Assembly (NCBI GenBank): GCA_044892525.1
Contig: CM097886.1
Location: 110,918,001 to 110,982,000 of the forward strand
Length of the DNA: 64,000 bases
DNA from: Schmidtea polychroa
Lineage: Eukaryota
Direction of reading: 5' to 3'
Part shown: piece by piece, positions 3,891 to 49,360 of the stretch
How the letters are laid out: each line of letters starts with the position of its first letter
Position numbering within the stretch: position 1 is the stretch's first letter
Translations under genes and position numbers: made by a program
Notes under the pieces: generated by a model
What the model saw: only the letters and a program-made list of their open reading frames with translations
The model's database searches: none
What the model was told of the DNA's origin: nothing

Positions 3891-4269
3891 CACCTAAATC
3901 CCAATCGGACAAAGAGAAAAGAGACAAAGGGGTGAAAAAGAGAAAAAACAGTAGAGTAGGGTAACATGTGAACCCGGGAACAAAGAACTATTACATAATT
4001 GATGATGTCACGAAGGAAATTACGCCATACTCCCGGAGAGGGGTATTTTTAATTTTTTTAAAATTTTTTAAATTACATAATAAAGAACTATTACACAATT
4101 AAGGCGCATTACGTAACAAAGGCATATTACAAAATAAAGACATATTACGTAATAAAGACATATGACTCATCGATTTAAACAAAGACATTACGTGATAAAG
4201 ACACATCATTAATTGGGGAAAATGGAATGTTTTAAATTAATTTGGAGCCTGATTGTCTGATATGATATT

Positions 4270-4531
4270 AGTAGTGAGGAATCTATGCACCCCAGCACCC
4301 CCACCCTCAAAAAAAACAGCGCTATTGACCCATATTTTCCACATTTATATGCTTTTTTACCCCATATTCTTCACTTTTTTTAACTTTTAAACTTTGTCCC
4401 CTATTGCCATTAACCCTTAATTTCTTCCCTTAAAAGTAAAAAAGTTCGGAATAGATGTATTTATAGATTAGTAATTCCGAGAAAAGGTAACGGGGTGCAT
4501 AGATTCCTCACTACTTGGTCTTAAGGATTTA
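4270..4531 (+). repeat. Left terminal inverted repeat of the Polinton
   Basis: Reverse complement of 19181-19444; by eye identical except an A8 vs A10 homopolymer. Confidence 0.96.
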
Positions 4532-4934
4532 ATGTTATAAGGATTTAATGTTATAAGAATATCAGATTACCTAATTCATAATGATCTAGGTCGCCTGATC
4601 ACCTTAAGGTTTTGAAAGTTTTAAAAATAAAAAATTTTATGAAAATAGTAAAACTGCTCTGAGGGGACAGTGGTATTTTTTTTTTTTTCACTGTCCCCTC
4701 AACAGTTTTTTTTTGATCCGGATCATTTTTTTTTTTTTTATTTATCAACCTCTTTCGTTTATCAAATCTCTTCCAATATACAAGCTGGCCAGACTCATAC
4801 ATCAGAATCAATCCGATAATAGCAGCACGCCTTATTATTCGCTTCTCGCTCACGAAGTCGATTTCAACGGCGTTTTAAGCGTGCTGCTCGAAAGTACAAA
4901 TGAATTCGAAAGCGAATCCGAAAGAGGTCCGAAA

Positions 4935-5024
4935 ACAACTGAGAAATAAATGTGCACATTACCGGGATCGATCCGGGGGTGTTCGAAAGACAGGTGGCGA
5001 TAATTACCGGTTCGCCACCATCAC
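4935..5024 (-). ncRNA. Putative tRNA-like / Pol III structured RNA (unit 3)
   Basis: Minus strand: A-box-like TGGCGAACCGG, D-arm-like GCGA/TCGC, 7-nt loop CTTTCGA on a 3-bp stem, T-arm-like CCGG-ATCGATC-CCGG, TTTT at ~4933-4936. No acceptor stem. Confidence 0.4.
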
Positions 5025-5206
5025 CCGTTTCAATATTTTTTTTTTCATATTTATGTTTAAAAAATAATTAATTTATAAAAAAATAAAATAAAATAAAATA
5101 AATAAAATAAAATATACAAGTACTTTATAAATATAAGATACCCACACTATTTTCAATATTATTTTCAAATTTTTAATATTATTTTATGTTGAAAAAAAAA
5201 CTAACC

Positions 5207-5503
5207 TCAGATGTGATTTGAACCACTATCCATTTGAACCACTGCGCCATCAAGGTTTGGATTTTTGTCATTTTTTAGACTATAAATAATCGATTCAAGT
5301 TCTTTAACTCTTTCCTGTAATTGTTTCATTTTCTTCAATCTTATATCAGCAACATCTACAGCCTTCATATAAAAATGTCGATACTTTTCATTATCTACCA
5401 TCAACTCTTTGATGTATTCTAATGGTTCTTCTTCTCTTCTTTTCATTCTCTTATGTTTAACTTCATTCAATTCATTTCTCATTCTTTCTTTTAACTCATC
5501 CAT
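5207..5503 (-). CDS. Small basic/coiled-coil orphan protein (98 aa) of the Polinton
   Basis: Intact ORF with the TAAAAATG start context shared with other element genes; charged helical heptad pattern. Confidence 0.65.
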   Translation of the reverse strand: MDELKERMRNELNEVKHKRMKRREEEPLEYIKELMVDNEKYRHFYMKAVDVADIRLKKMKQLQERVKELESIIYSLKNDKNPNLDGAVVQMDSGSNHI

Positions 5504-5674
5504 TTTTATAAATATTTTTTTATTGGATATATTAATTTTTGGTAGCTTAAGTTAAAACGTTTTTGATCTTAAATTTCCAAGAGTTGCCGTTGACCAATCA
5601 CCTTTAAAATTTGTACAAGTACTAAATCGAGTATGCTGATCAATATTTTGTTTAAAAAAAAATTTGAAAAGAAA

Positions 5675-5747
5675 TGACCGAAATGGGATTTGAACCCATT
5701 GGTATTGGCAATGCAGTCGAGTGCTATTACCACTAAGCTATTAGAGC
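5675..5747 (-). ncRNA. tRNA-Cys(GCA)-derived 73-nt tRNA-like RNA gene (unit 1)
   Basis: Invariant tRNA positions in register (T8, A14, G15, D-loop GG, T33, G34C35A36, G53-T-T-C-A-A, C61). Perfect T-stem ATGGG/CCCAT, acceptor 5/7 pairs, broken anticodon stem (2/5), oligo-T downstream. Confidence 0.75.
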
Positions 5748-5917
5748 TATACTCAATATAAAATAAGTTGTTAATGTGTGACTATTTATTGATGAAATTA
5801 ATAATTAATTATTCATTTTCTCGACAACTACCACTCAGATCCATCTGAAAATTTAAATATATACTAAAATCAGTACGCTGAATCAGATTCCGTTGAAAAA
5901 AAAATATCGAAAAAAAT

Positions 5918-5990
5918 TGACCAAAATCGAAAATTGAACCCGGACTCCCGGTGATAAAATTGAAGCCTATTCCCACTCCGCTATAATGGC
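5918..5990 (-). ncRNA. Second 73-nt tRNA-like RNA gene (unit 2), apparently paralogous to unit 1
   Basis: A-box TAGCGGAGTGG, B-box GGTTCAATT, ends GGTCA followed by T7. Shares ATAGC..AGTGG.AATAG, GGGTTCAA and TTT.GGTCA with unit 1; stems weak. Confidence 0.6.
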
Positions 5991-6046
5991 TTACATAATA
6001 TATTTAATTAATCCTATTGTGTGTGTGTAAATTTTAATATATAAAA

Positions 6047-7339
6047 ATGAATAATATAAATCTTAAAATTCAAGAAAAAAATAAATTAAATCTTGATTAT
6101 AATAAAGAATTTACTCATGAAATCAAGAAAAACGATGTACTTAAAATCTCCCCAACTTCAGGATCTATTGCAAACTTAAATCGTAGGGGTGATATAGTTT
6201 TTCAATCTCTTCAAACATCAAACCCTATAGATATTTGTAATGCCAAATTATATTATAAAATCGAATTAGAAATTGAAGCAAACAAAGATATAACCCTAGA
6301 AAATAATTTCTTTCCAAATTTATTCTCCAATATGAGATTAAAACTAGGATCATCAGAAATTGAAACTGTTTTACATCCGGGAGTATATTCTACAATGTTA
6401 AATTTTATTTTGACTGGTTGTGATTATAAAAATGAATATGGTGAATTAACAGGCTGGATTCCTGATGTTAATAAAGGAGATTTAGATAAAGATGGTTTAG
6501 ATATAAATTATGGTTACTATAAAAGAGCTGAACTTTATAAATCTAAAAAATTTGAAGGTTATTTTGAATTAAAACACTTGTTTGGATTCCTTCAAAACTA
6601 TAATCGTATACTTCATAATGTTTTTATAGAATTCATCTGTAATAGAGTAGAAGGTGATAAAAGATTGTTCTATGGAGCTGTAGATACAAAAGCTAAATTA
6701 AAATTATCAACACTTGAATTACATATACCTGAATGGACATTAAACCCACATTCTGAGATTAAACTCCTTGAAAGATTAAATTCCAACAAGTCTATAAATG
6801 TAAATTATTTAAATAGAATCTGTAGTGAATTTAGTATGACAGAGGGTTCAACATATTCTATAAAGGTAGCAAATTTAGCATACCGACCAAGATATATCTT
6901 GATTGGATTCAAAGAAACAGATTCATCTTTCCAAAAAAATAACAATCTATTTATTCAAAAGATTGGAGATGATAATTTAAAAACAATACAAATTCAATTA
7001 AATAGTTCTTATTATCCAATAAATAGAATGGAATTTAATATTGAAAATAATGAAAACATATTCCCATATCTAAATTATATTGAAACATGTTATGATTTCA
7101 AAGTTGAACCGCAATTAGGTTTAGAAGATTTCAAAAATTTATATTCTATATTTTGTATAAATGTTTCAGACCAAGATGATCGCCTAGCCATAAATAATGT
7201 TGATGTTACACTTCATGTAACAAAGGATTCTAATTTTAAAGCTAAAGTATATACATTAATATTAGAAGAAAAGAAAATAGAAATGAAATTATATAGTGGA
7301 AAGATTTCAATAATCGAAAATGTTAGGGGAGATTCTTGA
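6047..7339 (+). CDS. Major capsid protein (double jelly-roll, hexon-like), 430 aa
   Basis: Size, beta-rich composition and Polinton MCP-like motifs (SP...LN..G.I.F, NNFFPNLFS.MRL..G..EIE, PRYILIGF, FCINVS). Confidence 0.85.
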   Translation: MNNINLKIQEKNKLNLDYNKEFTHEIKKNDVLKISPTSGSIANLNRRGDIVFQSLQTSNPIDICNAKLYYKIELEIEANKDITLENNFFPNLFSNMRLKLGSSEIETVLHPGVYSTMLNFILTGCDYKNEYGELTGWIPDVNKGDLDKDGLDINYGYYKRAELYKSKKFEGYFELKHLFGFLQNYNRILHNVFIEFICNRVEGDKRLFYGAVDTKAKLKLSTLELHIPEWTLNPHSEIKLLERLNSNKSINVNYLNRICSEFSMTEGSTYSIKVANLAYRPRYILIGFKETDSSFQKNNNLFIQKIGDDNLKTIQIQLNSSYYPINRMEFNIENNENIFPYLNYIETCYDFKVEPQLGLEDFKNLYSIFCINVSDQDDRLAINNVDVTLHVTKDSNFKAKVYTLILEEKKIEMKLYSGKISIIENVRGDS

Positions 7340-7368
7340 TATAATCCCTGATATTTTAACATTTTAAA

Positions 7369-8769
7369 ATGTCTTTAAATAAATATTGGAGATGTGAAAC
7401 TTGTAATTGTCAAGTTACAAGACATCATAAAGCAAGCCATCTTAAAACTAAAAAACATACAGTAGGTGACCTAATTCCACGAGCTGGAGGCGATTTGCAA
7501 TCTTCAAAAACAACATCTTCAATATTAAAACCTTTTACTACAGAAAAATATCCAGGTGAAAGACATTTATTTAAACACAACTACACCGGACCAGGAACAA
7601 GATTAGATATTAGATTAGATGAAAATAATAATCCCAAACAAGGAGAAGAACCAATAAATAGAATTGATCAAGCAGCTTTAAAACATGACATTGCATACAA
7701 TTCAACAAATCTTAGAGATAGACATGTTGCAGATGTGAATTTAATACATGATTTAAATAGTATCCAAAATCCATCAACCCAAGAAAAGATTCAAAGAGCT
7801 CTAGTTAAATTAGCAATGAAAGGTAAGATTTTCATAGGCTTAGGACACAGTCCGATCACCATGGGTGCAAGACTTCCTAGGAAAGCAAAAGATGTTGCTT
7901 ATAAAAAGATTATCGAACAAGCAGAGATTGAAAGATCCCTCGAGAGTACAGCCAAGACTAGTTTACAAACCCCAACAGAATCAGAAATAAAATATGCAAA
8001 GGAATTACACCATGAATTTAGAAAAAATAAAAAATATTTAAAAGTTCAAGTACATGAAAAAGATCAAACATGGTCTGCAGATTTAGCCAAATCATCAGAC
8101 CCTGAAAAATATAAAATAATTTTAACTGTAATAGATTTATATACAAGATTTGCTTTTGCAAGATGTTTAGAAAATAAAACAGGATATTCTATTACAGAAG
8201 CATTTGAAAATATATTTGAAGAAAATCAAAGAATCCCAAAATATTTATGGTGTGATAAAGGAACAGAATTTTATAACAAAGTTTTTACAAAGTTTTTAAA
8301 TGAAAATGATATTAAATTATATTCAACAGAAAACGAAGGAAAAGCAGTCGTAGTTGAAAGATTAAATAGAACATTAAAAAATAAAATGTGGAAATATTTT
8401 ACTACTATTGGAAAACAAAAATGGAACAATGAATTGTTACAAAAGATTGTAAATGAATATAATAATGATGTACATAGTTCTATAAAATTAACACCTTTAA
8501 ATGCTTCCATGAAGCCTGAAACCATTAAAGTGGTAAATATTGAAAATGATGTTATTGAAAAACCAAAGTTTAAAATTGGTGACCGAGTAAGAATATTTAA
8601 ATATAAAAATAAATTTGAAAAAGGATTCACAGCAAAATGGACAAATGAAATTTTTATTATAAATAAAAAAAATTATACAACTCCAATAACATATAGCATC
8701 TTTGATTTAAATAATGAAAAAATATTAGGTAGATTTTATAATAATGAACTACAGAAAACAGATTTTTAA
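7369..8769 (+). CDS. int: ZnF-PLA2-retroviral-type integrase fusion protein, 466 aa
   Basis: N-terminal C2H2 finger; parvovirus-type PLA2 motifs YTGPG and KHDIAY; rve DDE triad (WSADL, WCDKGTEF, VERLNRTLK); C-terminal KFKIGDRVRI...W..EIF...Y...EL domain. Confidence 0.93.
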   Translation: MSLNKYWRCETCNCQVTRHHKASHLKTKKHTVGDLIPRAGGDLQSSKTTSSILKPFTTEKYPGERHLFKHNYTGPGTRLDIRLDENNNPKQGEEPINRIDQAALKHDIAYNSTNLRDRHVADVNLIHDLNSIQNPSTQEKIQRALVKLAMKGKIFIGLGHSPITMGARLPRKAKDVAYKKIIEQAEIERSLESTAKTSLQTPTESEIKYAKELHHEFRKNKKYLKVQVHEKDQTWSADLAKSSDPEKYKIILTVIDLYTRFAFARCLENKTGYSITEAFENIFEENQRIPKYLWCDKGTEFYNKVFTKFLNENDIKLYSTENEGKAVVVERLNRTLKNKMWKYFTTIGKQKWNNELLQKIVNEYNNDVHSSIKLTPLNASMKPETIKVVNIENDVIEKPKFKIGDRVRIFKYKNKFEKGFTAKWTNEIFIINKKNYTTPITYSIFDLNNEKILGRFYNNELQKTDF

Positions 8770-8780
8770 GTCGACAAGCC

Positions 8781-9586
8781 CTAAAACAAACTTTTCCATA
8801 TTTCAGCTTCTTCTCTATCCAAATAAATATAATTATATTTTTCTTTCCAATGATTATCAACAAACATATCAAACATATTCTTATCAGGTTCAACATTTGA
8901 AAATAAATCATTATAAATCATATTCTTATCACGGCGATCTAATTTAAAAAATATAAAACAATTGGAATTATTTCTTATTGAATTTTTATCTAAAGCATAA
9001 TATGTTTGAGATATATAAATAACATTACAATTATTATGTCGACCTCGTGTAAAGTAACTCTTTTGAATCTCTTGATTTTCATATTAACAACATCATCAAA
9101 TATAACTAGATTCTTTTTATCTTTAGGAAGTAAATCACAATGTAAAACATCTTCAGGTTTATTAGAGAATAAAACTTGAATTGCCTCCTGCCCTTCTTCA
9201 CAAATATAATCATTTTTATTACTAATATCTGATTCTAAAATCTTTTCCTTATACCAATCAACCATATCAAAAGGTTGAAAAACTTCTTCAGGACACCTAT
9301 GTTGATTTTTAAAAATATCAATTATTGCTTTTTTAGTTAATTTATTTTCAAATCCACATTTCAAAAGTTGTAATTCTGGTTGATTTATGGTTGTAGAATA
9401 AAAGATTAAATTATTATAATCTAAAAAATCATCTTCAAGTAACATTCTCAAAACAAGTACATTCTTTCCACATCCAGAAGAACCAACAATTAATAATCTA
9501 AAATTATCAGGAAATACTTTATTATTAAATTTACTCTTATGTCTATTTAAAATTGGTTTCCAAATTATTGGACTTCGTACATCCAT
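8781..9586 (-). CDS. A32/FtsK-like packaging ATPase with a 1-nt frameshift at ~9076-9079
   Basis: Walker A GSSGCGK and Walker B LVIFDD. Adding one A to ATGAAAATC restores NQEIQKSYFTRGRHNNCNVIYISQTYY..IRNNSNCFIFF to TAG at 8781-8783. Likely start ATG at 9586 (CAAAATG), not the TTG at 9625. Confidence 0.9.
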
Positions 9587-9601
9587 TTTGTTTATTATAA
9601 A

Positions 9602-10180
9602 ATGACAACTGAAGAATCTTTGCAAGAATTAATAAATTCAAATAAAAATAAATCAGTAGTAATTGATGGTAAAAAATATTTTATTGGAAAACATGTAAAA
9701 GAACAAGTTAGAGCGAAGATCCACGAAGCTAAAGAAGGTGGCATTCTTCCATTAGCTGCTTTAATACCTGCAATCATTGCTGGTTTATCAGGTGCTGCTG
9801 GAATAGCTGGAGGAATTGCAACTACAGTTCAAAAAGATAAAGAATCTCAAAAGACAGACCTAGAAAAAGAAAAACTACAAACTGAAATCGATTCAATGAA
9901 GAAGGTAGGGCAAGCTAAAGGGGGAGTGTCCGTTGGAAAGGGTCTCTATCTTAATCCATATGAGGGGAGTCGGCAAAAGTCTCAGGGCAAAGGTCTCTAT
10001 CTTGATCCTTATAAAGGTAGAGGTTTAAATGATTTTTTAAAAAATCAAATTTCTACATCTGAATCTTTATCTTCAAAAGATAAAGAAGATTTAAAAAAAA
10101 TATGTAAATCTTTAAAGAATGGATGCCTTTGTAAAACTAAAAATGGTAAAGGATTATACTTGAAGCCCTTCGAACTATGA
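9602..10180 (+). CDS. Adenovirus pX-like core / membrane-active precursor protein, 192 aa
   Basis: KEGG-ILPLAALIPAIIAGLSGAAGIAGGIA resembles the adenoviral pX C-terminus (GG-ILPLLIPLIAAAIG); three GKGLYLxP(Y/F) repeats. Confidence 0.65.
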   Translation: MTTEESLQELINSNKNKSVVIDGKKYFIGKHVKEQVRAKIHEAKEGGILPLAALIPAIIAGLSGAAGIAGGIATTVQKDKESQKTDLEKEKLQTEIDSMKKVGQAKGGVSVGKGLYLNPYEGSRQKSQGKGLYLDPYKGRGLNDFLKNQISTSESLSSKDKEDLKKICKSLKNGCLCKTKNGKGLYLKPFEL

Positions 10181-10202
10181 TACCATTTTTGATACCATTA
10201 AA

Positions 10203-11084
10203 ATGGTATATGAAGAAAGATTAGCACTTTTAAAAAAATTACAATCAGAACAAGATAAATATAATAAAAAAGATACAACTCAACATGCTGAATCTATAAT
10301 ATTAAATGAGGTAATAACACAACAACAGGGGCCAACAATTAAAGCTATAAAAGAGTTGGAAGATTTCAATGAGCAAGCAAAATTTAAAGAGTTAGAAGAT
10401 AAAAAACAAAAAATAAAAGAACTAGAGTGGCAGGATAAAGAAAAAGAATCCAGTAAAAACCATCCTGAAAGAAATCAAAGAAAACGCAGAAGAATTTCTA
10501 ATGTGGAAGAAGAAGAAATGTTTTTAAAAACAAAACCTCTTAAAGTTGATCCTAAAATTAGAGATGATTTACCTCCTTCAATTAGACCCACATTTAATAC
10601 TAATACTGAAGGATATCAAATAATAACAATTAATAAACAAAACTTTACTTTATATTCAAATTCAGAAAATAAATCACGTATTCATTCACAAAATGTTTAT
10701 AATAATGAATATTTAGACTTTGAATTTACAGATGATTTTTATAGATTACTTTGTGGATATTCTTCAGATGATGTTGAAGAAATTAAAAAATATTTAAATT
10801 TAATAAGATTAATAAGAGCTAGTTCTAAAGCAAAATATATTCAAGATTTAAAGAATTATTTAAATAAAAATGAAAAGGGTTATGTTGTTACAGAGGGAGA
10901 GGGATTAATTAGTGAAGGTGGTAAACCAAATCCCATCAATCTTTTTATTGAATTAAGAAAACTATTAGCTGCAAGGAAAGCAGGACATAATAATTTAGAT
11001 TCTGATATTTTAAAGATTTCTAAAGATTTGTTAAAACAAGGAATAATTTCAAAAGATAAATTTAATAAGTATACGAAGTTATAA
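10203..11084 (+). CDS. Conserved Polinton protein of unknown function, 293 aa
   Basis: Intact ORF with TAAAATG start. C-terminal GEGL...ELRKLLAARKAGHNN...I..ISKDLLKQGII matches a motif I recall in Polinton ORFs. Confidence 0.7.
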   Translation: MVYEERLALLKKLQSEQDKYNKKDTTQHAESIILNEVITQQQGPTIKAIKELEDFNEQAKFKELEDKKQKIKELEWQDKEKESSKNHPERNQRKRRRISNVEEEEMFLKTKPLKVDPKIRDDLPPSIRPTFNTNTEGYQIITINKQNFTLYSNSENKSRIHSQNVYNNEYLDFEFTDDFYRLLCGYSSDDVEEIKKYLNLIRLIRASSKAKYIQDLKNYLNKNEKGYVVTEGEGLISEGGKPNPINLFIELRKLLAARKAGHNNLDSDILKISKDLLKQGIISKDKFNKYTKL

Positions 11085-11106
11085 ATACGAAGTTTTAAAA
11101 TACAAA

Positions 11107-11511
11107 ATGACTCCTTCAATATTAGATTTTTTAAAAACATTTGGAATAAATGCAAAAACAAATTTTGATTTAAAAGATTATGCAAATTATTTAAATTTAA
11201 AAATTAAAATATTAATGAATGATGAATTATCAAGTCTGGAGAGTCCCCTGAATATAATAATCAATTATCAAAATTCAAATGAAAAAGGATCTCATTGGGT
11301 TTGTATATATAAGAAATCTATCTACTTTGATTCTTTTGGGATTAAACCTACTAAAGAAGTTGAAGATTATCTCTTGAGGGGTTCTCCGATTGATTCCCCA
11401 AATGGTTATACTTTTAACTCTTTACAAGTTCAACCTTTGAATACTAAAATATGTGGTATTTTAAGTTTATATGTTTTGTATAGATTGAAAGGGGCATACG
11501 CAGGATTTTGA
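11107..11511 (+). CDS. Adenain-like cysteine protease (maturation protease)
   Basis: GSHWV, YFDSFG, QVQ and CGILSLY give the His/Asp/Gln/Cys catalytic set. The C-terminus may be frameshifted at GGGG 11491-11494. Confidence 0.92.
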   Translation: MTPSILDFLKTFGINAKTNFDLKDYANYLNLKIKILMNDELSSLESPLNIIINYQNSNEKGSHWVCIYKKSIYFDSFGIKPTKEVEDYLLRGSPIDSPNGYTFNSLQVQPLNTKICGILSLYVLYRLKGAYAGF

Positions 11512-11605
11512 ATCTATAATTCAAGAAATTTATAATGATCTAGAATCTCTACTATAAGGATTTTTACTATAAGGATTTTTACTATATGAATTTACTACTA
11601 AAGAA

Positions 11606-12370
11606 ATGGAGCTTCACAACCCTCCGGAAGATAATTTTAAAAAAATGGTAAACATAATGTCAGATAAATATTCAAGAACTTTATCTATAAATTCAAAAGA
11701 ATCAGACTTTACTATAAACTTTCAAGATTCAATTAAATTAGATCAAAATTTAAATTATGAATTGGGGCTATTATGGTTTTGTGCTTATAATACTATTTTT
11801 AATATAACTAAAGATAATAATAAATTTACTATTCAAACTCGTGATGGGCATAAACCAGAAATTATAACAATAGAACCTGGGGCATATGAGATAAAAGATT
11901 TAAATGATATACTTTCTAAAAAAACAAATGAAGGTATTAAAATTAAAATGGATATACCAACTTCAAAATGTGTAATGACTTTGAAGAATATAAAAATTAG
12001 TTTTTTAGATAATTGTTTCTTTCACACAGTTTTAGGATTTAAACCTATGGATATAACAATAAAAGAAGATAAAATAATAACATCAGAACATATTATAAAA
12101 ATAATAAATACAAACACAATAAATATTCATTGCGATTGTATAACAGGTTCTTATAATAATGGTAAACAAACAAATGTTTTATATTCCTTTCCCTCAAACA
12201 CAGTTCCTATGGGATATAAAATAGTTGAAAGAATGAATCCTCCAAATTATTTACCTTTATGTAGAAAATTTATAATGGATATTAATTTTAAAATTCTTAA
12301 TCAAGAAGGAGAATTGATTGATTTTAATGGAGAAGAGATTTCAATGTATTTACATTTGAAACAGGTTTGA
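11606..12370 (+). CDS. Minor capsid protein (penton, single jelly-roll), 254 aa
   Basis: Polinton penton motifs YNTIFNIT..NNKF, G.YEI.DL, VLGF, INIHCD.I.GSY.NG...VLYSF, P.YLPL, Q.G.LIDFNGE.I...LHL. Confidence 0.9.
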   Translation: MELHNPPEDNFKKMVNIMSDKYSRTLSINSKESDFTINFQDSIKLDQNLNYELGLLWFCAYNTIFNITKDNNKFTIQTRDGHKPEIITIEPGAYEIKDLNDILSKKTNEGIKIKMDIPTSKCVMTLKNIKISFLDNCFFHTVLGFKPMDITIKEDKIITSEHIIKIINTNTINIHCDCITGSYNNGKQTNVLYSFPSNTVPMGYKIVERMNPPNYLPLCRKFIMDINFKILNQEGELIDFNGEEISMYLHLKQV

Positions 12371-12394
12371 AGATTCATTTTAAATTATTAATAA

Positions 12395-13405
12395 ATGAGT
12401 TCTTATATTCCATGTAATAGAGGTGGTGGAACAATAAAAACAGGGTTTAATACAGAAGAAATATTAACTTTAACAGAAAATAAATATATTAATGAAATAG
12501 GTGATTCAATGAAGGGTGATTTAATTTTAAATGGACACAAGATAAAAGAATTATCTTTTCCAACTGATGAAGCTGATGCAGTTAATAAGAAATATGTAGA
12601 TGGTGTTAAAAAATATACTGATTTAACAACAACAAGAATTGAAAGTTCATTAACAACAAAAATTGATTCAATGGAATCAAAGCTTAATAATATCGAACAA
12701 CGATTTAATGATAAATTTGACAAGTTACAAAGTCTGTTAACTGAACAAGTTGTAAAGTTAAATACTGCTATATTAAATTCTAAAGATAAACAAATTATGA
12801 ATACTAAATTTAATACAATATATAAAATAATAAATGAGATGATTACATCATTTAATAAAAGAATTTCAAATTTAGAGTCTCATGGAACACACATTAACAC
12901 CACACATAGTATTAGAAAAAGAGCTGCTGAATTAGAACAGAATAAAACATTATTACCCCATACATATAAACATTTTATAGAACCAAGTTTAATAACAACA
13001 AACAGTAAAGAATGGGGTGTTTTTATGGTTGTAAAAATTATTGATCCTTATTTCTTTTTGTTTGATGATGATAATGAAAGAATGAAATGGTTTGTGAAAT
13101 GTGATTATAATAGTATGCTTGAAAAGGGTGATGTTATAATGACTAGTTATGATTTACCACACGGAGATTGGTATGTTAATACTCATTCACATGGACTACA
13201 TAAAGTTAAAAGTAAGAATATTCATTTTTCTAGTTCACTTGTACAATATATAGATTTAATATTTTATGAAAAAAAGGTTGATGTTGATGAAGTTCGTAAA
13301 GCATTGAGAGAATTGTATAAAGATATCCTCTCAACAAGAGTTTCTTTTGATATCCGAGTATTGGTGCCAGATGGTGCTCAGAAGAATAAAGTCTTATTTT
13401 TTTAA
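12395..13405 (+). CDS. Putative fiber / receptor-binding protein, 336 aa
   Basis: GDSMKGDLILNGHKIKEL..P....DAVNKKYVD tail-fiber-type motif, then a long coiled coil and a beta-rich C-terminus; lies directly after the penton gene. Confidence 0.55.
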   Translation: MSSYIPCNRGGGTIKTGFNTEEILTLTENKYINEIGDSMKGDLILNGHKIKELSFPTDEADAVNKKYVDGVKKYTDLTTTRIESSLTTKIDSMESKLNNIEQRFNDKFDKLQSLLTEQVVKLNTAILNSKDKQIMNTKFNTIYKIINEMITSFNKRISNLESHGTHINTTHSIRKRAAELEQNKTLLPHTYKHFIEPSLITTNSKEWGVFMVVKIIDPYFFLFDDDNERMKWFVKCDYNSMLEKGDVIMTSYDLPHGDWYVNTHSHGLHKVKSKNIHFSSSLVQYIDLIFYEKKVDVDEVRKALRELYKDILSTRVSFDIRVLVPDGAQKNKVLFF

Positions 13406-13413
13406 TTATTAAA

Positions 13414-14025
13414 ATGGAAGAAGTAAGAGAAGAAAAAATTTACCCAGAATTGAGATCATCAGGATATTATTCCGAAGGTCACAAAGGTTCCAAGGCCTCG
13501 GCTCCCACAGAACTTGAAATTATGAGAGTAAAAGAATTTAAATCAGAAACCTTACATATAAAAGATTTATTAAAGCATTATAAAAAAATTAAAAATAGAT
13601 GGAATAAAGGGAATACAGTTTTAAAAGTTATAGGTTATTCTTTAGGATTTGCATCTGCAATATTAACAGTTATTTTACCCATAACTTTACCAGTTGTTAC
13701 TCTTGCACCTGTAATACTTGGAAGTATTTCTGTGGCTGATGGTTTCTTAACTGAAATAGTTTCATTATCTTATACTTCTAAAAAGAAAAGTTTATATAGA
13801 GAAGTTTGTTTATCAATAGAATTAGGAATCTCTAAATTATTTTTATTTCAATTAAAAGCTTTGGAAGATGGAATCCTGACAGACGAAGAAATAATGAAAT
13901 CAAATCAAATAATACAAGATATAAAGAATGAGGTTATAAGATTAAAAAGGGAGGGCATGGTGGCTAATGTTATAAGTAATAAAAAAACATCTCGAGAAAA
14001 ATGGTTAAAGAATTCTTACTTATAA
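13414..14025 (+). CDS. Polinton membrane protein (two hydrophobic helices), 203 aa
   Basis: IYPEL...SAP N-terminus, hydrophobic VIGYSLGFASAILTVILPITLPVVTLAPVILGSISV, and an LEDG.L..EE motif; intact ORF. Confidence 0.7.
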   Translation: MEEVREEKIYPELRSSGYYSEGHKGSKASAPTELEIMRVKEFKSETLHIKDLLKHYKKIKNRWNKGNTVLKVIGYSLGFASAILTVILPITLPVVTLAPVILGSISVADGFLTEIVSLSYTSKKKSLYREVCLSIELGISKLFLFQLKALEDGILTDEEIMKSNQIIQDIKNEVIRLKREGMVANVISNKKTSREKWLKNSYL

Positions 14026-14103
14026 AATGGGTGTATTTTTAAAAAAGTAGATCAGGTTGCTATAGTTGCTTAAATTAATTGTCGACATTTTATTATTAAA
14101 AAA

Positions 14104-14658
14104 TTAAATATCGTTGAAAGCCAACCTATGAATCATTAATTTATGATATTTAAATTCTTTATCACTTAGACCTTTTATATATTCAGGATCAGTATTAAAA
14201 TATTTAAGTTCTAAACATATAGGATTAAAAACTTGAGAATATAAAGGTTTCTCGATTTCTCTCTGGGGATAAATAATTTCAACATTATAAATATCAAGAT
14301 CAGTAATCTTTGTATCATATAACTTCTTCAACTTTTCTAGATTTTTTATTATAGGGATTAAATTATTTCCAATAGGTAGAGTTGTCTTTAAATCACTTAG
14401 TATGAATCTCTTATCATCATAATTTGATAATGATACTTTTTGAGATTCTATCAAGTGAATATCATGGTTTTCACTTTTAAGTTGATGTATTTCATCAATT
14501 TTATCTTTATGATTTGGGTTTAATGTATCTATATAATCTTGATGAGAAAGATTCTTTGCAACCACTCTCTGTATTCCTTTACATCTGTTATCCTTTAAAT
14601 TAGTAATATTTTTTATAATTTCAAAAATGTTATTTTCTTGATTTTTAGTTTCCATCAT
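14104..14658 (-). CDS. Stand-alone paralog of the pPolB C-terminal domain, 184 aa
   Basis: Aligns without gaps to the PolB tail from KGIQ through HKLM (about 60% identity by hand over ~150 aa). Has its own TAAAATG start and no catalytic motifs. Confidence 0.85.
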   Translation of the reverse strand: MMETKNQENNIFEIIKNITNLKDNRCKGIQRVVAKNLSHQDYIDTLNPNHKDKIDEIHQLKSENHDIHLIESQKVSLSNYDDKRFILSDLKTTLPIGNNLIPIIKNLEKLKKLYDTKITDLDIYNVEIIYPQREIEKPLYSQVFNPICLELKYFNTDPEYIKGLSDKEFKYHKLMIHRLAFNDI

Positions 14659-14682
14659 TTTATAGTGTTAAAATTCTAATTC

Positions 14683-17600
14683 TTAGAGCAGTCGTAATTG
14701 ATTTATAATTATTTCTGCAGTAATGCTTTTTAACATTAATTTATGTGATTTAAAGTCTTCTGGTGTTAGTCCTTGGATATATTCAGGATCAGTATTAAAA
14801 TATTTAAGTTCTATAGGTTTTATATTTTGAACTTGATTATATAAAGGTTTAGGAATTAATATTTCAGGATATTGGATTTCTACTTTAGCAAGTTGAAGGT
14901 CTGTAATCTCTAGGTTATAAATTTCATTTATTTTATCAAGATTTTTTATTATAGGGATTAAATCATTTCCAATAGGTAATGTTGTCTTCAAGTCAGAAAG
15001 TATAAATCTTTTATCATCATAATTTGTTATAGCAATCTTGTTACACTCTTCAAGATATATATTATGTTTCTCTGATTTAAGATGATGGGTTTTAGCAATT
15101 TTATTTTTATAATTTATATTTAATGAATCTTTATACTCTTGATGTGTGAAGGTTTTTGACACTGATTTTTGAATTCCTTTACTTTTATTTTCTTTATAGC
15201 TTTTCGGGTTTTCAGGGAATGAAGGATATTCAAATGTTCGATCTACTTCAACAGATCCTTCTATTATAAATTTTATTGTATGCTCTTTCATAATTGGTTT
15301 GTCTTTCATTTCAAGAGAATATTGTTTAGGTCTAATAAACACTCCTCCAGTTATTGGAGTATTTGGTTTTTCATCTTTAAAAGTAAACAACTCTCCAGAA
15401 TTGTTTATTAATTTATTTAAGGTTGGATCTTCACGTATTTCTTTTTTGAAATCTTTGCTATATCCTTTTAAAAACATACTATCAGTGTCCATTGCATGCA
15501 TGGATATTCGATCTCCAAAATGTGGTACTAGAACATCATAGTAAGCTTCATACATTTGAAGCTTTGAAAGTTCTAAAATTGAAAACCCTATAAAGATTGG
15601 TTTATTATAAGTTTTTACAGAGTTTTTAATCTCTATGGCTATAAGGTTACTAGAGAATATCTCGGCATTTTTAAATGTGGGCTTTCCAATTATCCAGTTG
15701 TACCTATTAAGGTCTTTGGATGTATTGGTCAAAAGCTCTACACGTGTGTACTTGTCTATATTCTCCATGGTCTTTCCAAAGACCGCATTGTTCAGGAGTT
15801 TGTAAATCATATCAAGAAATGCATTTCCAGCTCTCTTTGCTGCATTTCTTTTCAAAATATTTCCCTCTATGAATTTTTTCATAAAAGGGGCTTGTCGAAA
15901 TTTAATAATGGAATGTACTTTTTTTAAAACCATTCCATGGGAGAGATAAAACTGAAGGAGTCTATAATGACAAAGGTAATCAGTTTTATCCGTCTGATCG
16001 CATAAAAGTTTTATACAGGGCGATCTATCCTGAGCCATCTGCCAGTCTGAAAGTTCTTCAGTCGAGATCTTTCTTCTTACTGGAGCAAATGGAAAGAATC
16101 TTGTCCTGGATTTTATTTCATTGGGATATTCAAGATCACATTCTATGACATATCCATATTGTGAATTCTTTGGTGTTTTTAGAATTTCTTGTATTAATTC
16201 CTCAGTGGGCTCTTCCCAGGTGAACTTGCCAATTGGAAGGTATTGAGTCATTACTCCTCCATATAAAGCTGTTGCATCTATATACATTATTTCAGAAGGA
16301 TTAGAAAGACCTTCCAGTATTTCCTCACGATCTTCTGGGTTTGTTATTTCTACATATAGAGCATCAGTATCTTTGAAAAATTTAGGATAAAGAGTTGTAA
16401 AATTATTAGCATTTATTTCTCTATTCCCTTGTACTGAAGAAATACCTCCTCTAATATTATGTTTATATACATTAAACATATCAAGGTCAACTAATAATTC
16501 AATGGTTTTATTTCTTTCTGCTATGTCTTCATCGGTCCATATGCTATATAATAATATATCCCAAGCTAGAGAGGGAGCGGTTATATAATTATAAGGTTTT
16601 AATTCAAAAGCTTTTGAAAATGTCTCGAAGTAATCAGCTAAGATATAAACATCTAAGGAAAGATACATGTCAGTATATTCTCCAAGGTTTCTACAGTTGA
16701 AAAGATTCCACATTTTAAGTGCACGGGAATATTCCTGATCAGAAATCCCTGATTGTGTTAAAACAGAAAAGAAATCTTCTTGAGCTGGGAGTAATTCATT
16801 ATATTTTTCAAAGGAGTCTATATAATCATATGGATAGATTCCTTTTGCTAGACAGGTATTATATTCCTCTAATGGAATATTGTTTTTTAATAACACATGT
16901 TCTTTTGTATATTTAAAATCCTCAGGGTTCATAGTTTTTGCAATGCCATCCAAAGACATCCCTAAGAAATTTAAGGAGTCCAAAAACTTAAAGCATCCAT
17001 ATTGAATGCTTTTATATTTTTCTTTTGTAAGTCCAATAACCTTGAAAGAGTTTTTAGCATTTGCAGCTAGATGTTTAATGAACAGGTGAATATCATAGCC
17101 AAAAAGATTGTGAAATATAAATGGTATGTGTGTTGGTTTTTTACAATTGAGATTACAATTTTTATGGGCCGCTCCTCTGTAATTATTTTCTATTTTAAAA
17201 TGATCATGGTCAGGAACCTTAAGTTCACTAGTTGACTCCTCATCCTCGAACTCTTGTTTGCACATCCAGCAGTGTGTTGCATTTTTATATTCTTCCTCTT
17301 GTTCTTCTGAAAAATTCATAGGAAAGTTGGATTTTAATATTATATATAATTCATGTTCTAGATTATTTAAAGTTTCAACAAAATGGTCTAGAGTCTCTTT
17401 GTCAGAAGTTCCCCTAAATGAATATTCTCTAGATTCTACAAGTTCTGGATAATTACTTTTGAAAAACATTTTATAAGCAGAGGGTAATTGTTTTGTTAGT
17501 TTTACAGTATTAGTTTTTGTTCGTCTTAGTTTTACATTTATAGCTTCAAAATCACAATAAACCACTCCCAATGCTTCTAATAGATTGGAATAGTTTTTAA

Positions 17601-19068
17601 ACCTCATATTAGCATTTTTCTTGTGTGGCATTTTTATTAAAGCAGGTTGATTCTTACAACAGAGTCTCTCATGTTTAATAGCAGCAAGTTTTGAAGTTGA
17701 ATGATATAAACATCTTTTACAACATATGCCTCCACGAATGAGTGTGTTTCCTTTCATAAAACTTTGAAAATTCTTTATTAAGATATAATGAAGTTTTTTA
17801 TCTAACATAGTGCCTCCGGACGCAGTGCTTTCTGCTTCTGGTTCTAATGAAATGCCTTCTTCTGCTTCCATAACCTTCGGGTGAATACTTTGAACCTCTT
17901 CACCATATTCTTCTCCATCAAACTCTTCGTCTGCTTTACCTTCTTCTAATATTAAAAGATCTACTTCTCTCTTTTCATCTGAGATTTCCATATTAGAAAT
18001 GTAAATAGGAATAATTTGTTTATAATTTTTATATTTTCTAGTTTTTGTAATTTTGGTTGGAATGAATTGATAAATATTAATTTTAAGATTATTTAATTTT
18101 TCAAATGCTAGAACATCTTCAATTTTCATTGGGTGGGAAAAATCTTTTGGATATATTAATTCAGATTCATATTCTTCATATTTTTGAACTCTCTGTGGGT
18201 TAGTTGCTTGAGGATGTAAGTGTGCAAGTATTGACCATTGAAAACATTTATTATCTTTATTCTGTACATTTATAACATGGTTGGAGGTGAATGGTGTATG
18301 AATAAAAGATTTAGGATTTGGTGGTGCACCTCTCCAGTATTCAATCTCTATGTTTTGAAAAGAGTGGAATCTTAAATTAGATTCTCCTAGTTCTTGTTCC
18401 ACCTGTTCTTGTTTTTCTTCCAATTCTTTAGCTATATCATTAACAAGTTTATTTCCTGCTTTTGTAGAAAATAAATATTTATATGAGGTTTCAATTTTTA
18501 CATCTAGAGGCATTGCGATCGAATCATCTCCTCTCCAGTATTTTGCATTTCCTGTAAATTTAACTTTTATAACATTAAATCTTGATCTACCAAATTTTTT
18601 TATAGCATCATCCATTGATGATATTATTTTTTTTTTATTTTCTCTTATATATTGCATGATTGATCTGGGTCCTCGTTTTACTTCTGCAATTACATCGGTG
18701 TGATTGAAGTTGTCCCAATTAAACTCTAGTTTTTCAGCTTTTTCAGTCATTGAGTTTGAATCAGAATCTTTTGCTTCAAGACCACAATCTTCTATGTGTC
18801 TTAAGTAAAAAGATTTTATCTTCATATTTTTTCCACATGCTGAACATTCGAATATTTCTCTGTTTTTAGGAACTCCAATACAATTTTTAAAATATTTCTT
18901 ATAACCTGAAAATAAATATCTATCCTTACATTTAGTACAGATTTTGGAATTAGTGTCATCTAGTGTGTTAGCTTTTATTAAATGGTCTTTTGATTTTTTA
19001 TGAGATGTTAAAGCAGTTTTATTTTTAAAATATTTTTCACAAATTTCACAATTGAAAATAGCTTCCAT
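14683..19068 (-). CDS. polB: Protein-primed family B DNA polymerase (N-terminal ZnF, terminal protein region, vOTU-like region, Endo VII finger), 1461 aa
   Basis: Exo motifs YCDFE, FHNLFGYD, YLSLDV; Pol motifs DATALYG, KLLNNAVFGK, MDTDS; EndoVII-like CWMC..DHDH..YRGAAH..CN; NKCF...HY Cys/His pair. Confidence 0.96.
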   Translation of the reverse strand: MEAIFNCEICEKYFKNKTALTSHKKSKDHLIKANTLDDTNSKICTKCKDRYLFSGYKKYFKNCIGVPKNREIFECSACGKNMKIKSFYLRHIEDCGLEAKDSDSNSMTEKAEKLEFNWDNFNHTDVIAEVKRGPRSIMQYIRENKKKIISSMDDAIKKFGRSRFNVIKVKFTGNAKYWRGDDSIAMPLDVKIETSYKYLFSTKAGNKLVNDIAKELEEKQEQVEQELGESNLRFHSFQNIEIEYWRGAPPNPKSFIHTPFTSNHVINVQNKDNKCFQWSILAHLHPQATNPQRVQKYEEYESELIYPKDFSHPMKIEDVLAFEKLNNLKINIYQFIPTKITKTRKYKNYKQIIPIYISNMEISDEKREVDLLILEEGKADEEFDGEEYGEEVQSIHPKVMEAEEGISLEPEAESTASGGTMLDKKLHYILIKNFQSFMKGNTLIRGGICCKRCLYHSTSKLAAIKHERLCCKNQPALIKMPHKKNANMRFKNYSNLLEALGVVYCDFEAINVKLRRTKTNTVKLTKQLPSAYKMFFKSNYPELVESREYSFRGTSDKETLDHFVETLNNLEHELYIILKSNFPMNFSEEQEEEYKNATHCWMCKQEFEDEESTSELKVPDHDHFKIENNYRGAAHKNCNLNCKKPTHIPFIFHNLFGYDIHLFIKHLAANAKNSFKVIGLTKEKYKSIQYGCFKFLDSLNFLGMSLDGIAKTMNPEDFKYTKEHVLLKNNIPLEEYNTCLAKGIYPYDYIDSFEKYNELLPAQEDFFSVLTQSGISDQEYSRALKMWNLFNCRNLGEYTDMYLSLDVYILADYFETFSKAFELKPYNYITAPSLAWDILLYSIWTDEDIAERNKTIELLVDLDMFNVYKHNIRGGISSVQGNREINANNFTTLYPKFFKDTDALYVEITNPEDREEILEGLSNPSEIMYIDATALYGGVMTQYLPIGKFTWEEPTEELIQEILKTPKNSQYGYVIECDLEYPNEIKSRTRFFPFAPVRRKISTEELSDWQMAQDRSPCIKLLCDQTDKTDYLCHYRLLQFYLSHGMVLKKVHSIIKFRQAPFMKKFIEGNILKRNAAKRAGNAFLDMIYKLLNNAVFGKTMENIDKYTRVELLTNTSKDLNRYNWIIGKPTFKNAEIFSSNLIAIEIKNSVKTYNKPIFIGFSILELSKLQMYEAYYDVLVPHFGDRISMHAMDTDSMFLKGYSKDFKKEIREDPTLNKLINNSGELFTFKDEKPNTPITGGVFIRPKQYSLEMKDKPIMKEHTIKFIIEGSVEVDRTFEYPSFPENPKSYKENKSKGIQKSVSKTFTHQEYKDSLNINYKNKIAKTHHLKSEKHNIYLEECNKIAITNYDDKRFILSDLKTTLPIGNDLIPIIKNLDKINEIYNLEITDLQLAKVEIQYPEILIPKPLYNQVQNIKPIELKYFNTDPEYIQGLTPEDFKSHKLMLKSITAEIIINQLRLL

Positions 19069-19180
19069 TTTTAAAAGAATTTTTTGGTTGGATACGATGT
19101 TTTGGTTTTGATATTAATTTTTATTAATTTTTAAATCCTTATAACGTTAAATCCTTAAATCCTTAAATCCTTTAAATCCT

Positions 19181-19444
19181 TAAATCCTTAAGACCAAGTA
19201 GTGAGGAATCTATGCACCCCGTTACCTTTTCTCGGAATTACTAATCTATAAATACATCTATTCCGAACTTTTTTACTTTTAAGGGAAGAAATTAAGGGTT
19301 AATGGCAATAGGGGACAAAGTTTAAAAGTTAAAAAAAGTGAAGAATATGGGGTAAAAAAGCATATAAATGTGGAAAATATGGGTCAATAGCGCTGTTTTT
19401 TTTTTGAGGGTGGGGGTGCTGGGGTGCATAGATTCCTCACTACT
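19181..19444 (-). repeat. Right terminal inverted repeat of the Polinton
   Basis: Reverse complement of 4270-4531; followed by TSD GATATT. Confidence 0.96.
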
Positions 19445-20292
19445 GATATTTTAAGTCCAATAAATATTACAAGTAAAGTACTTCAGAAAGAAAATTTTAA
19501 TGTTTCGGAAGCTACAACAGTACTTTCTAATAGTATTGACTATTTAAAAAAGTACAGAACAGATGATAAGTTTAAGTTATTCAAGAGGCCAAAGAAATTG
19601 CACTACAATTAGAAATTTAGCCAGAGTTTGAGAAAATAAGAAATCGTCGCAGAAGAAAGCAATTCGAAGTAATCAATGATGCAGCACAAAATTTTAAGAA
19701 TAATTTTTTAAAAAAATCCTTGATCAAGCAACTGTGTCATCAAATGATAGGTTTACGTTGATTCGGGAGCACAATAAAAATTTTNNNNNNNNNNNNNNNN
19801 NNNNNNNNNNNNNNNNNNNNNNNNNNNNNNNNNNNNNNNNNNNNNNNNNNNNNNNNNNNNNNNNNNNNNNNNNNNNNNNNNNNNNNNNNNNNNNNNNNNN
19901 NNNNNNNNNNNNNNNNNNNNNNNNNNNNNNNNNNNNNNNNNNNACTGCGGGAACCGTATAAATCCGCACGGCCGTTTGCATGCAGTAATGAGACACAAAA
20001 TATGCAAAAGCGCCCCGCAGCGAATCTTGCTACACTCTTAAAATATATCGGAATATATATGCTACGTTAATTATTAGCATCATCTTTGGCCAACGTTTTC
20101 ATAGCGCTAAGAGGTGAAAAGAGTTTTTCAAAATTAAAACTAATTAGAACCTATATACGCTCTACGATGAGACAAGAACGATTAGATGCTCTGGCCACTT
20201 TGCCAATTGAACTTGAAATTGCCAAAAATTTAAATGAAGAGGAATTAATTGATAGGTTTGCTACCATAAAGGCTCGAAAGATTAGTTTTTAA
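19445..20292 (+). pseudogene. hAT (ZMYM1-like) transposase remnant interrupted by the Polinton and by an N gap
   Basis: The frame LIV*YDI (left flank, ~4249-4269) continues as DILSPINITSKVLQ (right flank). The C-terminal dimerization segment GEKSFSKLKLIRTYIRSTMRQERL is at 20086-20292. Confidence 0.8.
19785..19943. other. Assembly gap (others at 53785-53913 and 61945-62095)
   Basis: Runs of N. Confidence 0.99.
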
Positions 20293-23761: not shown

Positions 23762-26118
23762 CTAATGACAAGAACAAGTAAATACAATAGAATCGTTTTG
23801 TAGAATGTGGTCATTGTTTAATACTACATTTAATAAAATAAAGCAGTTTTCACCGACGGCATGATTGCGCCCCCTTAGCGGTTTGTGAAAACCTATCAAA
23901 TCCTTGTTTTTGCAATTATCGTAACTGAATGTTTTACTAAAATGAATTTGATTTGATGTCTGGTTCATCAAACTGATGGTCACGCAACGCCTCATTGGCC
24001 ATTCTAATTTTTCATCATGAGTTCCTCGAGATAAATAAAAGAAAACCGACAGATATTTATCCCGACCACTACCATATCCATTCGGATATAGCTCTAGTAC
24101 CAATTGGTAACCATTGATATGGGAATAAAATTGATCACTGGTAAAAGTTGATATTTCTCCTTTTTTTGCCCATTGTAACTTATTATAGAAATTTTCGATT
24201 TTCCAACGAAAGGGTTTATACAAATTATTGTTTTGGACAAAATTAAGAATTCTATTCCTAGCTTTCGATGCAGATTTTACTGGGATCGGGGAAGTTTGCG
24301 TATTATGATGATAATCTGGTTTCCATTCAATTGTTTGCTGATTCATATTTGATTTGATTACTAACCTTTCGACACCGTTAACTATTGATTTGCACTGAAA
24401 ATTCAAAATCAAGCAAATTTTCTTTCTGTTCCATCATAGGTGATATCAATCAAATTTATTTATCAAAGAAACAAAATTAACAAAAAACATGATAAGTGGA
24501 AATTAGAAATAAATTCAAGTTATTAAAAATCCATATCTAATGATTGACTATTTTCAAAATTATTTAAATTAAAATTATATAAATATTAAAACTGATTTAT
24601 GTAGAAAAAAACATTGAAAATAAATGATTTTGATAAAATTGAATATAATTTGGTTTTTTGAAATCAATATAATTTTATCAAATATACTTTTGTTTGTTCT
24701 AATTGAAATTAATTTATAGTTAAGATAATTCATATTTGAAATCATGAAAGTAGTGATGAAGATGAAATCATGCAAGAAGTTAGAGACTTGAGCATTTTGA
24801 GCAGAGGGGTCGAAGGTTATTATTATTAAACAATTAATTAATGCGGTTACCAGGAAATCATCACTTTATACTTATTATTATTATTTATTATTACAAGTAA
24901 ATGATAATATATGTCTTTTGCTGCAAATTATATATTGAATAAAATGAAAAATATGTCGATACATAATATAAAAATAATCCTTATCAATTTCAGAAATTAT
25001 TATCATTTAGCAAAATATTAAGACATTTATATGTATTAGTTAGAAATACACTGATATGTGAAATAACGATTGCCAAATTCATATGCAATTTAAGTAAAAC
25101 ATGAACATTTGTATATTATTTAGCAAAGTCTTGTAATTAATATAATTTAATTAAAAAATAATACTTAAATAAACACGGTAAAGATTTTATTAATAAAAAT
25201 CGCCATTCATACATCTTTTTCACTATATATTTCGATAGCATCACTATCATCATCATGTTACCTACATTCACGACGGTTGAATAACTATACTATATTGATA
25301 ATATATAAACAAATTATAAAATCTATAAATTTTAAATTATAAATAAAAATTTCAAACATTTATTTTTTTTTATTTTTATAAATAATTTTCAACAATCAAT
25401 TATATTTAAACTTTTAAAATTATTAAAAATATTATTTTAATTATTTTTTTAATTATTTAACATAACTATTATTAATATACATCAACATACAAAAACTTAA
25501 TTAAAAACATTTAACACACAAGTATTCACTGCATTCTGCACATTGATTTTAGGATTAAAAGTTCTTATCAATAATGCTTCACATATCACACGCTCAAAAC
25601 AATTATCAAAACTTTTTGATAAGATTTTAAAATCAGACATTCCTAATTCTCTCATACAGACTTTATTGTGATCCTTAATATTGGACACTCCTTTCGGTCG
25701 ACAGTGTTCTTCAACTCGAGTACAGAGATGACGGGAAGTCTCTCCAATGTATGTAGCATTACACCCATTACACGTGAATTGATAAACGAGATCCGAAAAC
25801 AATCCAACCAGCGTTTGAGATTTACTAACAAACATACTACGTACTTTGCACGATTTTGAAACAATTCTATAATTCAATGTACCTAACTGTTTACCAATCT
25901 TTCTTTTGAAATCTTTATATCCTTCAGAATACGGCAATACCATCGTATATTTTGGCTCATCTTGTTTGTTAGTATCAATACTCATATTCACTACATCATT
26001 CGATATATCAGTCAATTTACATTCATTCATACTACGATTCTTAGCATTATTCATACATTTATCAACAGTCTCTTTCAACGTTAACAATAAAACCCGTTTT
26101 GAGTAGCCATTCTTCACC

Positions 26119-26187
<69 letters not shown>

Positions 26188-49328: not shown

Positions 49329-49360
<32 letters not shown>

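Follow-up and report, generated by a model that had tools for sequence, protein, structure and literature searches.

A Maverick/Polinton integrase joined to a parvovirus-type phospholipase A2, in frame or at a −1 junction

Within a 64,000-nucleotide (nt) stretch of the Schmidtea polychroa genome (GenBank assembly GCA_044892525.1, contig CM097886.1, forward-strand positions 110,918,001 to 110,982,000; here called the window and numbered from its first letter), a Maverick/Polinton element carries a single stop-free open reading frame (ORF; 7369..8769, + strand) that encodes, in 466 amino acids (aa), a zinc-finger-like part, a parvovirus-type phospholipase A2 (PLA2) and a retroviral-type (rve) integrase, as found by Pfam searches, alignment and a structural model. 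We regard the reality of this PLA2-integrase fusion as practically beyond question. The architecture is family-wide and under selection, and it occurs in a known kind of element; what is new here is a split of the gene known as PLA2X, together with junctions in relatives at which the integrase lies in the −1 frame behind PLA2, and these are stronger points than the fusion as such. Judging from the genes, we propose that the integrase is coupled to a virion PLA2, packaged with it and cleaved by the viral protease, a reading to which we assign a probability of about 0.55.

RESULTS

Domains and conserved residues of the fusion protein

A first-pass annotation, made from the letters alone, had described a zinc finger, a PLA2 and a complete DDE integrase in one uninterrupted frame, and the frame, the PLA2 and the catalytic triad all held up. 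The PLA2 (7534..7839, +) matched Phospholip_A2_4 (PF08398) at aa 66-147 with 35.1 bits (cut-off 23.9), and the integrase (7978..8769, +; Pfam, alignment and fold search) matched rve at aa 229-318 with 44.4 bits (cut-off 32.6). When the window protein was aligned with 29 of 30 database fusions (P0039, which has a different integrase type, was excluded), H106, D107, Y110, D122, K153, G157, D238, D296 and E330 proved invariant across the 30 rows. The YTGPG calcium loop (aa 72) and the HDxxY dyad (HDIAY at aa 106) are thus intact, as had been noted, and the enzyme is likely active. The “complete” integrase does have its triad (D238/D296/E330) and a beta-rich C-terminal domain, but a Pfam search found no Chromo match in it, the ORF ending past the beta-rich domain, and the window copy carries a 9-nt shortening described below. 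The zinc finger fared less well: the C2H2-like pattern C9, C12, H24, H30 (7384..7461, +), modeled as two strands and a helix with a predicted local distance difference test score (pLDDT) of about 70-80, had no Pfam match at E ≤ 0.05 and is optional, many aligned relatives being without it.

The linker motif MKGKIFIGLG is present (aa 150-159; 7816..7845, +), but its KxKxxGxG pattern is the inherited PLA2-domain end of ordinary PLA2X proteins. By alignment and model this conserved domain end is also a candidate protease site, as is a Gly-Gly pair in the flexible spacer before PLA2 (aa 40-41; 7486..7491, +). Apart from the calcium loop, the fusion protein has GG or GxG at aa 40-41 and 157-159 only; GGD is kept in 19 of the 30 rows, and GxG or GG after PLA2 in 25. 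The model of the 466-aa protein (mean pLDDT 78.7; predicted template modeling score 0.49) runs from a small N-terminal fold through a stretch at aa 32-55 to a confident helical PLA2, then through aa 159-172 to the integrase core. Both stretches have low pLDDT and are probably flexible, and the first and last Gly motifs border them. A fold search with the whole model returned retroviral, mavirus and MELD-virus integrases almost throughout, the sole PLA2-side row being densovirus VP1 at rank 50.

Sister copies in the host genome

We searched the host genome assembly (781 Mb in 1012 contigs) for sister copies with a 100-aa query from the PLA2 stretch. All 150 scored matches, from 2503 candidates, were 100% identical and lay on one contig (C1); picked by PLA2 identity, this set may favor young copies. 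The DNA of the sister copies is 95.7-98.9% identical to the window ORF, and such near-identity suggests a recent burst. The frame was open over at least 460 aa in 121 of the 150 scored sisters and over at least 420 aa in 126, being shorter in 24, so that no general stop separates the domains that the first-pass annotation had seen as joined. With the whole element free of N, these open frames rule out an assembly artifact or single-copy accident. Extra GG repeats occur in sister variants L124, L127 and L130.

The window copy itself is 9 nt (three codons, in frame) shorter at about position 8087 than all 30 fetched sisters. As this shortening sits two codons past the first catalytic Asp, the window integrase itself may be impaired. 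The packaging ATPase ORF (8990..9586, −; Walker A and B motifs, Pox_A32 below the Pfam cut-off) also looks shortened, because it has 198 aa versus 258 and 287 aa in relatives L031 and L032. Given both features, the window copy is probably not fully functional. When the same genome was searched with the terminal part of a chromodomain-type integrase, 150 matches were scored, and the 10 loci fetched all belonged to the window's family; beyond these 10, other families may be present in the host genome.

The fusion in other elements

Among PLA2 matches of 256-816 aa in a protein database, a length range that favors fusions, 30 of 50 also contained rve, so that the fusion, which had been taken for unusual, is in fact common in databases. 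Matches under 256 aa numbered 121, and nearly all of the 120 listed had no rve, many of these short proteins being contig-end fragments. A motif test on representatives clustered at 50% found PLA2 followed by an integrase start in 20 of the best 150, and a chromodomain was present in some database fusions (P0196, P0222). These proteins and relatives on viral and metagenome contigs rule out that the fusion is unique to this genome; single-protein scans of viral contigs brought up no matches, or none that were new. Four predictions from the mollusc Lottia gigantea (P0091, P0119, P0124 and P0155) run from the PLA2 end motif directly into the integrase start and then stop or diverge, and the in-frame junction thus exists in this named species, probably in decayed copies.

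We found no PLA2-integrase fusion or junction described in the literature; Repbase, annotated adintovirus genomes, supplements and subscription papers may already show one. “Fused” and “fusion” occur 0 times in the accessible text of Starrett 2021 (PMC8502044), and the accessible parts of Yutin 2013 (PMC3671162) and Krupovic 2024 (PMC11161782) contain no such fusion.

The integrase frame is displaced by −1 in many relatives

Retroviral Gag and Gag-Pol are expressed through −1 ribosomal frameshifting, A AAA AAC being the gag-pro site of mouse mammary tumor virus. Viral and metagenome contigs yielded 91 loci, 45 of which have the PLA2 end and integrase start motifs at most 400 nt apart; the two motifs are in frame in 19 of these, at −1 in 24 and at +1 in 2. 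The 24 −1 loci represent 22 clusters at 90% identity and 17 at 80%. In all 26 shifted loci the integrase frame is without an ATG ahead of the start motif, and in most of them its first Met comes ~30 codons later, beyond the first catalytic Asp; stop-start translational coupling through an ATGA or TAATG overlap is thereby ruled out.

An in-register X XXY YYZ heptamer was found in the possible shift window of 18 of the 24 −1 loci, against 0.64 expected from same-length windows within the same integrase ORFs. Between the Gly motif and the PLA2 stop, with L031 dropped, 19 of 23 loci have the heptamer in the correct register, and 9 and 5 have it in the other two; of the in-frame loci, 1 of 19 has it. 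The slip site lies 2-9 codons past the equivalent of MKGKIFIGLG, and several loci have six-A sites exactly in the A AAA AAC register. Codon choice agrees with this placement, the first Lys-Lys/Asn pair being spelled AAA AAN in 15 of 15 loci versus 17 of 42 pairs in integrase ORFs (Fisher p 3e-5), or 9/15 versus 1/42 in the strict form of the test (Fisher p 5e-6); one locus was taken per 80% cluster, nine being dropped (seven redundant, plus L031 and L104), and relatedness inflates these p values.

The ratio of nonsynonymous to synonymous substitution (dN/dS) in eight pairs of −1 loci was 0.05-0.17 for PLA2 and 0.04-0.13 for the integrase (seven computable), with dS up to 1.8; six in-frame pairs gave 0.06-0.25 (five computable). 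These values indicate purifying selection on both domains, PLA2 in fused relatives included. Decay of the −1 loci into pseudogenes is ruled out by their ratios of 0.04-0.17, which hold also where dS is above 1. Together, the heptamers and the purifying selection point to a gag-pol-like programmed frameshift operating without a detectable hairpin, and a trans-frame PLA2-integrase is, from these signals, likely made in the −1 group.

A quick, unrooted IQ-TREE analysis of 73 integrase rows (L032, L070, L081, L120 and rows under 150 aa excluded) placed 16 of the 17 −1 rows in one 21-row branch (Shimodaira-Hasegawa-like approximate likelihood ratio test [SH-aLRT] 99), alongside 3 in-frame and 2 +1 rows. 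The 9 rows whose PLA2 is distant make up one side of a branch (SH-aLRT 98), and the window protein falls within a 31-row group (SH-aLRT 87). A chromodomain-like end was present in 11 of 17 −1 rows versus 2 of 43 in-frame rows. An integrase of a very distant type is likewise found immediately after PLA2: in L074 and L080 it starts at an ATG of its own, and in P0039 and P0130 it is fused to PLA2 in frame. The P0039 fusion suggests more than one origin of the coupling.

The PLA2X gene is split in two

PLA2X consists of PLA2 and a C-terminal pX-like domain and belongs to the Alpha virion module, according to the accessible text of Starrett 2021 (PMC8502044). In the window element the two halves lie in two ORFs, the pX-like half standing alone as a 192-aa ORF (9602..10180, +), identified by sequence matches, with a hydrophobic segment, G-K/R-G-L repeats and recurrent G-x-G. 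The database protein P0071 holds both halves: its N-terminal half can be aligned to aa 60-170 of the fusion, KxKxxGxG end included (34% identity, E 3e-13), and its C-terminal half aligns with the stand-alone ORF (E 6e-9). Seven of 23 matches to that ORF carry Adeno_PX (PF05829), and one is a full PLA2X. In all six fused loci having a pX-half match (L043, L045, L046, L048, L060 and L063) the pX half is without PLA2; in L033, L034 and L037, PLA2 and pX share one frame and the integrase is kilobases away. We concluded from these matches that the usual PLA2X gene is split, PLA2 being the front of the integrase ORF and the pX half a gene of its own.

Stop-free frames in L035 (340-1371, −), L039 (471-1535, −) and L060 (2182-3513, −) combine PLA2 or the pX half with the protease, which suggests further virion-module fusions. 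A single in-frame stop divides the PLA2 part of otherwise fused ORFs in L054, L056 and L058.

Remaining genes of the element and its surroundings

Maverick/Polinton elements are recognized by terminal inverted repeats that start with AGT and by a 6-bp target duplication. Both are present in the 15,175-bp element of the window (4270..19444), which is flanked by GATATT on both sides (4264-4269 and 19445-19450). Its left terminal inverted repeat (4270..4540, +) begins AGTAGT and, in the inverted-repeat comparison, matches the right one (19172..19444, −) over 243 nt at 97% and 52 nt at 98%. The major capsid protein, a double jelly roll of 430 aa, is encoded at 6047..7339 (+; PF21738, E 1.4e-26). 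An adenain/Ulp1-like cysteine protease of 134 aa (11107..11511, +) has the H, D, Q and C motifs; a Pfam search gave nothing above cut-off, and its look-alike clusters carry PF00770 with scores of 0.95-0.97. The 254-aa ORF at 11606..12370 (+), conserved in related elements, is probably a minor capsid (penton) protein, a family label suggested by look-alike clusters that are mainly viral and unnamed; it had no Pfam match.

The protein-primed B-family polymerase (PolB; 1461 aa, 14683..19068, −; PF03175, E 1.3e-11) is, like the rve integrase (PF00665), above its Pfam cut-off, and a Pfam search, the only one made for it, found no OTU-like domain at the PolB N terminus. A PolB of the PF03175 class is one mark of Alpha adintoviruses in the accessible text of Starrett 2021 and Buck 2024; another, an integrase with a C-terminal chromodomain, is absent from the window element. 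Just behind the polymerase, a 184-aa ORF (14104-14658, −) copies the last 165 residues of PolB (58% identity, E 2e-60), which indicates an old duplication of the PolB C terminus retained as a separate open frame.

Outside the element, host-type exons lie in two sets on the − strand (23762-24346, 30866-31393, 44298-44900 and 51022-51624), which we take to resemble TRAF RING and MATH domains. An inverted repeat pair, up to 99-100% alike, occupies 24793-25511 and 48786-49439; the first copy adjoins an ORF (25497-26120) that is presumably GIY-YIG-like.

DISCUSSION

We propose that the integrase of this lineage is tied to a virion protein, the PLA2 part directing the precursor into the particle. 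In the −1 group, as in the expression of Gag and Gag-Pol, most ribosomes would stop and yield only PLA2, and a minority would shift and yield PLA2-integrase; the window's group, its join fixed in frame, would have a PLA2-to-integrase ratio of 1:1. The adenain-like protease would cut at GG before PLA2 and at GxG after it. By analogy to parvovirus VP1, the freed lipase would then help to breach the endosome, and the integrase would arrive together with the genome, ready for insertion. The first-pass annotation had likewise suggested a packaged polyprotein cut at GxG by the viral protease, a reading that our results support in part. We infer packaging because it explains most simply why one and the same virion-module protein is coupled to the integrase both by in-frame fusion and by frameshift; cleavage, activity of the enzymes and the frameshift itself are likewise predictions. 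A broader formulation is more tentative, and we put it a little short of an even chance: a wide Maverick/Polinton group would follow a Gag-Pol-like strategy, making its integrase only as an extension of a virion phospholipase, packaged and protease-released, through a structure-independent −1 slip in one branch and in-frame fusion in others.

Several observations weigh against this proposal. Particle, cleavage, lipase and frameshift products are all predicted from genes alone, and many PLA2 relatives under 256 aa are without integrase. The adenovirus protease consensus is (M/L/I)xGG or (M/L/I)xGxG, and neither Gly site of the fusion fits it in its strict form; most of the G-K/R-G repeats in the pX half deviate from it too. 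A stimulatory hairpin or pseudoknot would be expected 5-9 nt after a slip site; hairpin folding in 60-nt windows revealed no stable structure there (mean z −0.06, n = 23, versus −0.11 for controls, n = 20). Three of the 24 −1 loci are doubtful, as L031 breaks within the conserved motif, L104 has a stop there and L051 clusters with in-frame loci. L032, a −1 locus outside the motif count, has an ATG a few codons ahead of the integrase motif, and in L074 and L080 the integrase has its own ATG right behind the PLA2 stop, so adjacency without fusion exists. Finally, L101, L117 and L071 have A-runs of 10, 9 and 8 A and differ in frame, L117 and L071 being at least 95% identical; since A-run length varies between close relatives, some frames may be assembly errors.

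The absence of the strict consensus at both Gly sites also speaks for an uncut fusion, a single virion-borne or nuclear-envelope-directed integrase molecule whose PLA2 would act on membranes while attached. Parvovirus PLA2 functions tethered to a capsid protein (Yutin 2015, PMC4642659, accessible text), and as little as 9 nt can separate GxG from the integrase motif. The invariance of G157, the retention of GxG or GG after PLA2, the modeled flexibility just past it and the element's retained protease with its catalytic motifs make us consider this unlikely. The coupling might alternatively serve expression only: the integrase would borrow the PLA2 start codon, be cut off in the cell and serve intracellular transposition, the −1 group being a compact way to low integrase output and the in-frame group an accident of fixation. 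Frameshifting would lower the amount of integrase wherever the enzyme goes, the presence of at least 150 near-identical copies in a single genome fits copying inside cells, and L074 and L080 show adjacent genes with separate starts. Such a role would leave unaccounted for the retention under selection of the capsid, the protease, the pX half and the PLA2 catalytic residues, and the choice of a virion-module partner by two distant integrase types; we judge it slightly less probable still.

The −1 junctions, for their part, could reflect short introns, polymerase slippage on the A-run, non-ATG starts or homopolymer errors, without any gag-pol parallel. A-runs of 6-10 nt can slip in transcription or sequencing, and those seen here vary between near-identical loci; the hairpin signal is absent, and 13 of the 26 shifted loci have CTG, GTG or TTG codons upstream. 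Random error would hardly produce 24 loci at −1 and 2 at +1, however; six-A sites are set precisely in the A AAA AAC register of several loci, and transcriptional slippage would yield the fusion protein anyway. Introns have little support: a consensus-like, frame-restoring GT-AG intron could be drawn in 3 of 21 loci, with no common position, a pyrimidine-rich acceptor was present in 3 of the 21 loci tested for splicing, and L101 has no AG whatsoever ahead of the conserved Trp. We regard this set of explanations as improbable. For ribosomal frameshifting, sliding on A-runs (Koutmou 2015, PMC4363877, accessible text) offers a structure-free route.

The packaged, protease-released integrase that we favor has parallels in known systems. 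Like retroviral Gag-Pol, the −1 form places an enzyme without a start in the −1 frame behind a structural protein, with X XXY YYZ heptamers and probable release by a protease, and the passenger is a retroviral-type integrase; unlike Gag-Pol, it belongs to a DNA virus-like element, has a lipase as carrier and no detected stimulatory RNA structure, and in the window's group is joined in frame. With Alpha adintoviruses, or group 2 Maverick-Polintons, as presented in the accessible parts of PMC8502044 and bioRxiv 10.64898/2026.06.19.733378, the window element shares its PolB, integrase, protease and ATPase classes, a double-jelly-roll capsid, a parvovirus-type PLA2 and a pX-like sequence. In those elements, however, PLA2 and pX form one gene and a chromodomain-ended integrase is separate, whereas here PLA2 sits on a chromodomain-less integrase and pX is separate. 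The PLA2 of the parvovirus VP1-unique region has the same calcium loop and HDxxY/D residues and a proposed role in endosome escape (Geisler 2018, PMC5803895; Yutin 2015, PMC4642659; accessible text), but it is attached to a capsid protein and not to an integrase. For adintoviruses, −1 frameshifts have been predicted at penton C termini and between hexon and adenain (Buck 2024, PMC11071296); in the accessible text of that paper they do not lie at PLA2/integrase junctions, and “PLA2” occurs 0 times in its main text.

These results bear on how an integrase is delivered to an incoming Maverick genome and on whether such elements still travel as particles. The conserved join between integrase and virion module predicts a packaged integrase and names the peptides to seek, and the host genome, where near-identical copies number at least 150, makes an obvious source in which to search for the protein. 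Gene finders truncate −1 integrases at an internal Met or label them pseudogenes. If our interpretation is right, the −1 form would show a DNA virus-like element using programmed recoding, apparently with no RNA structure involved.
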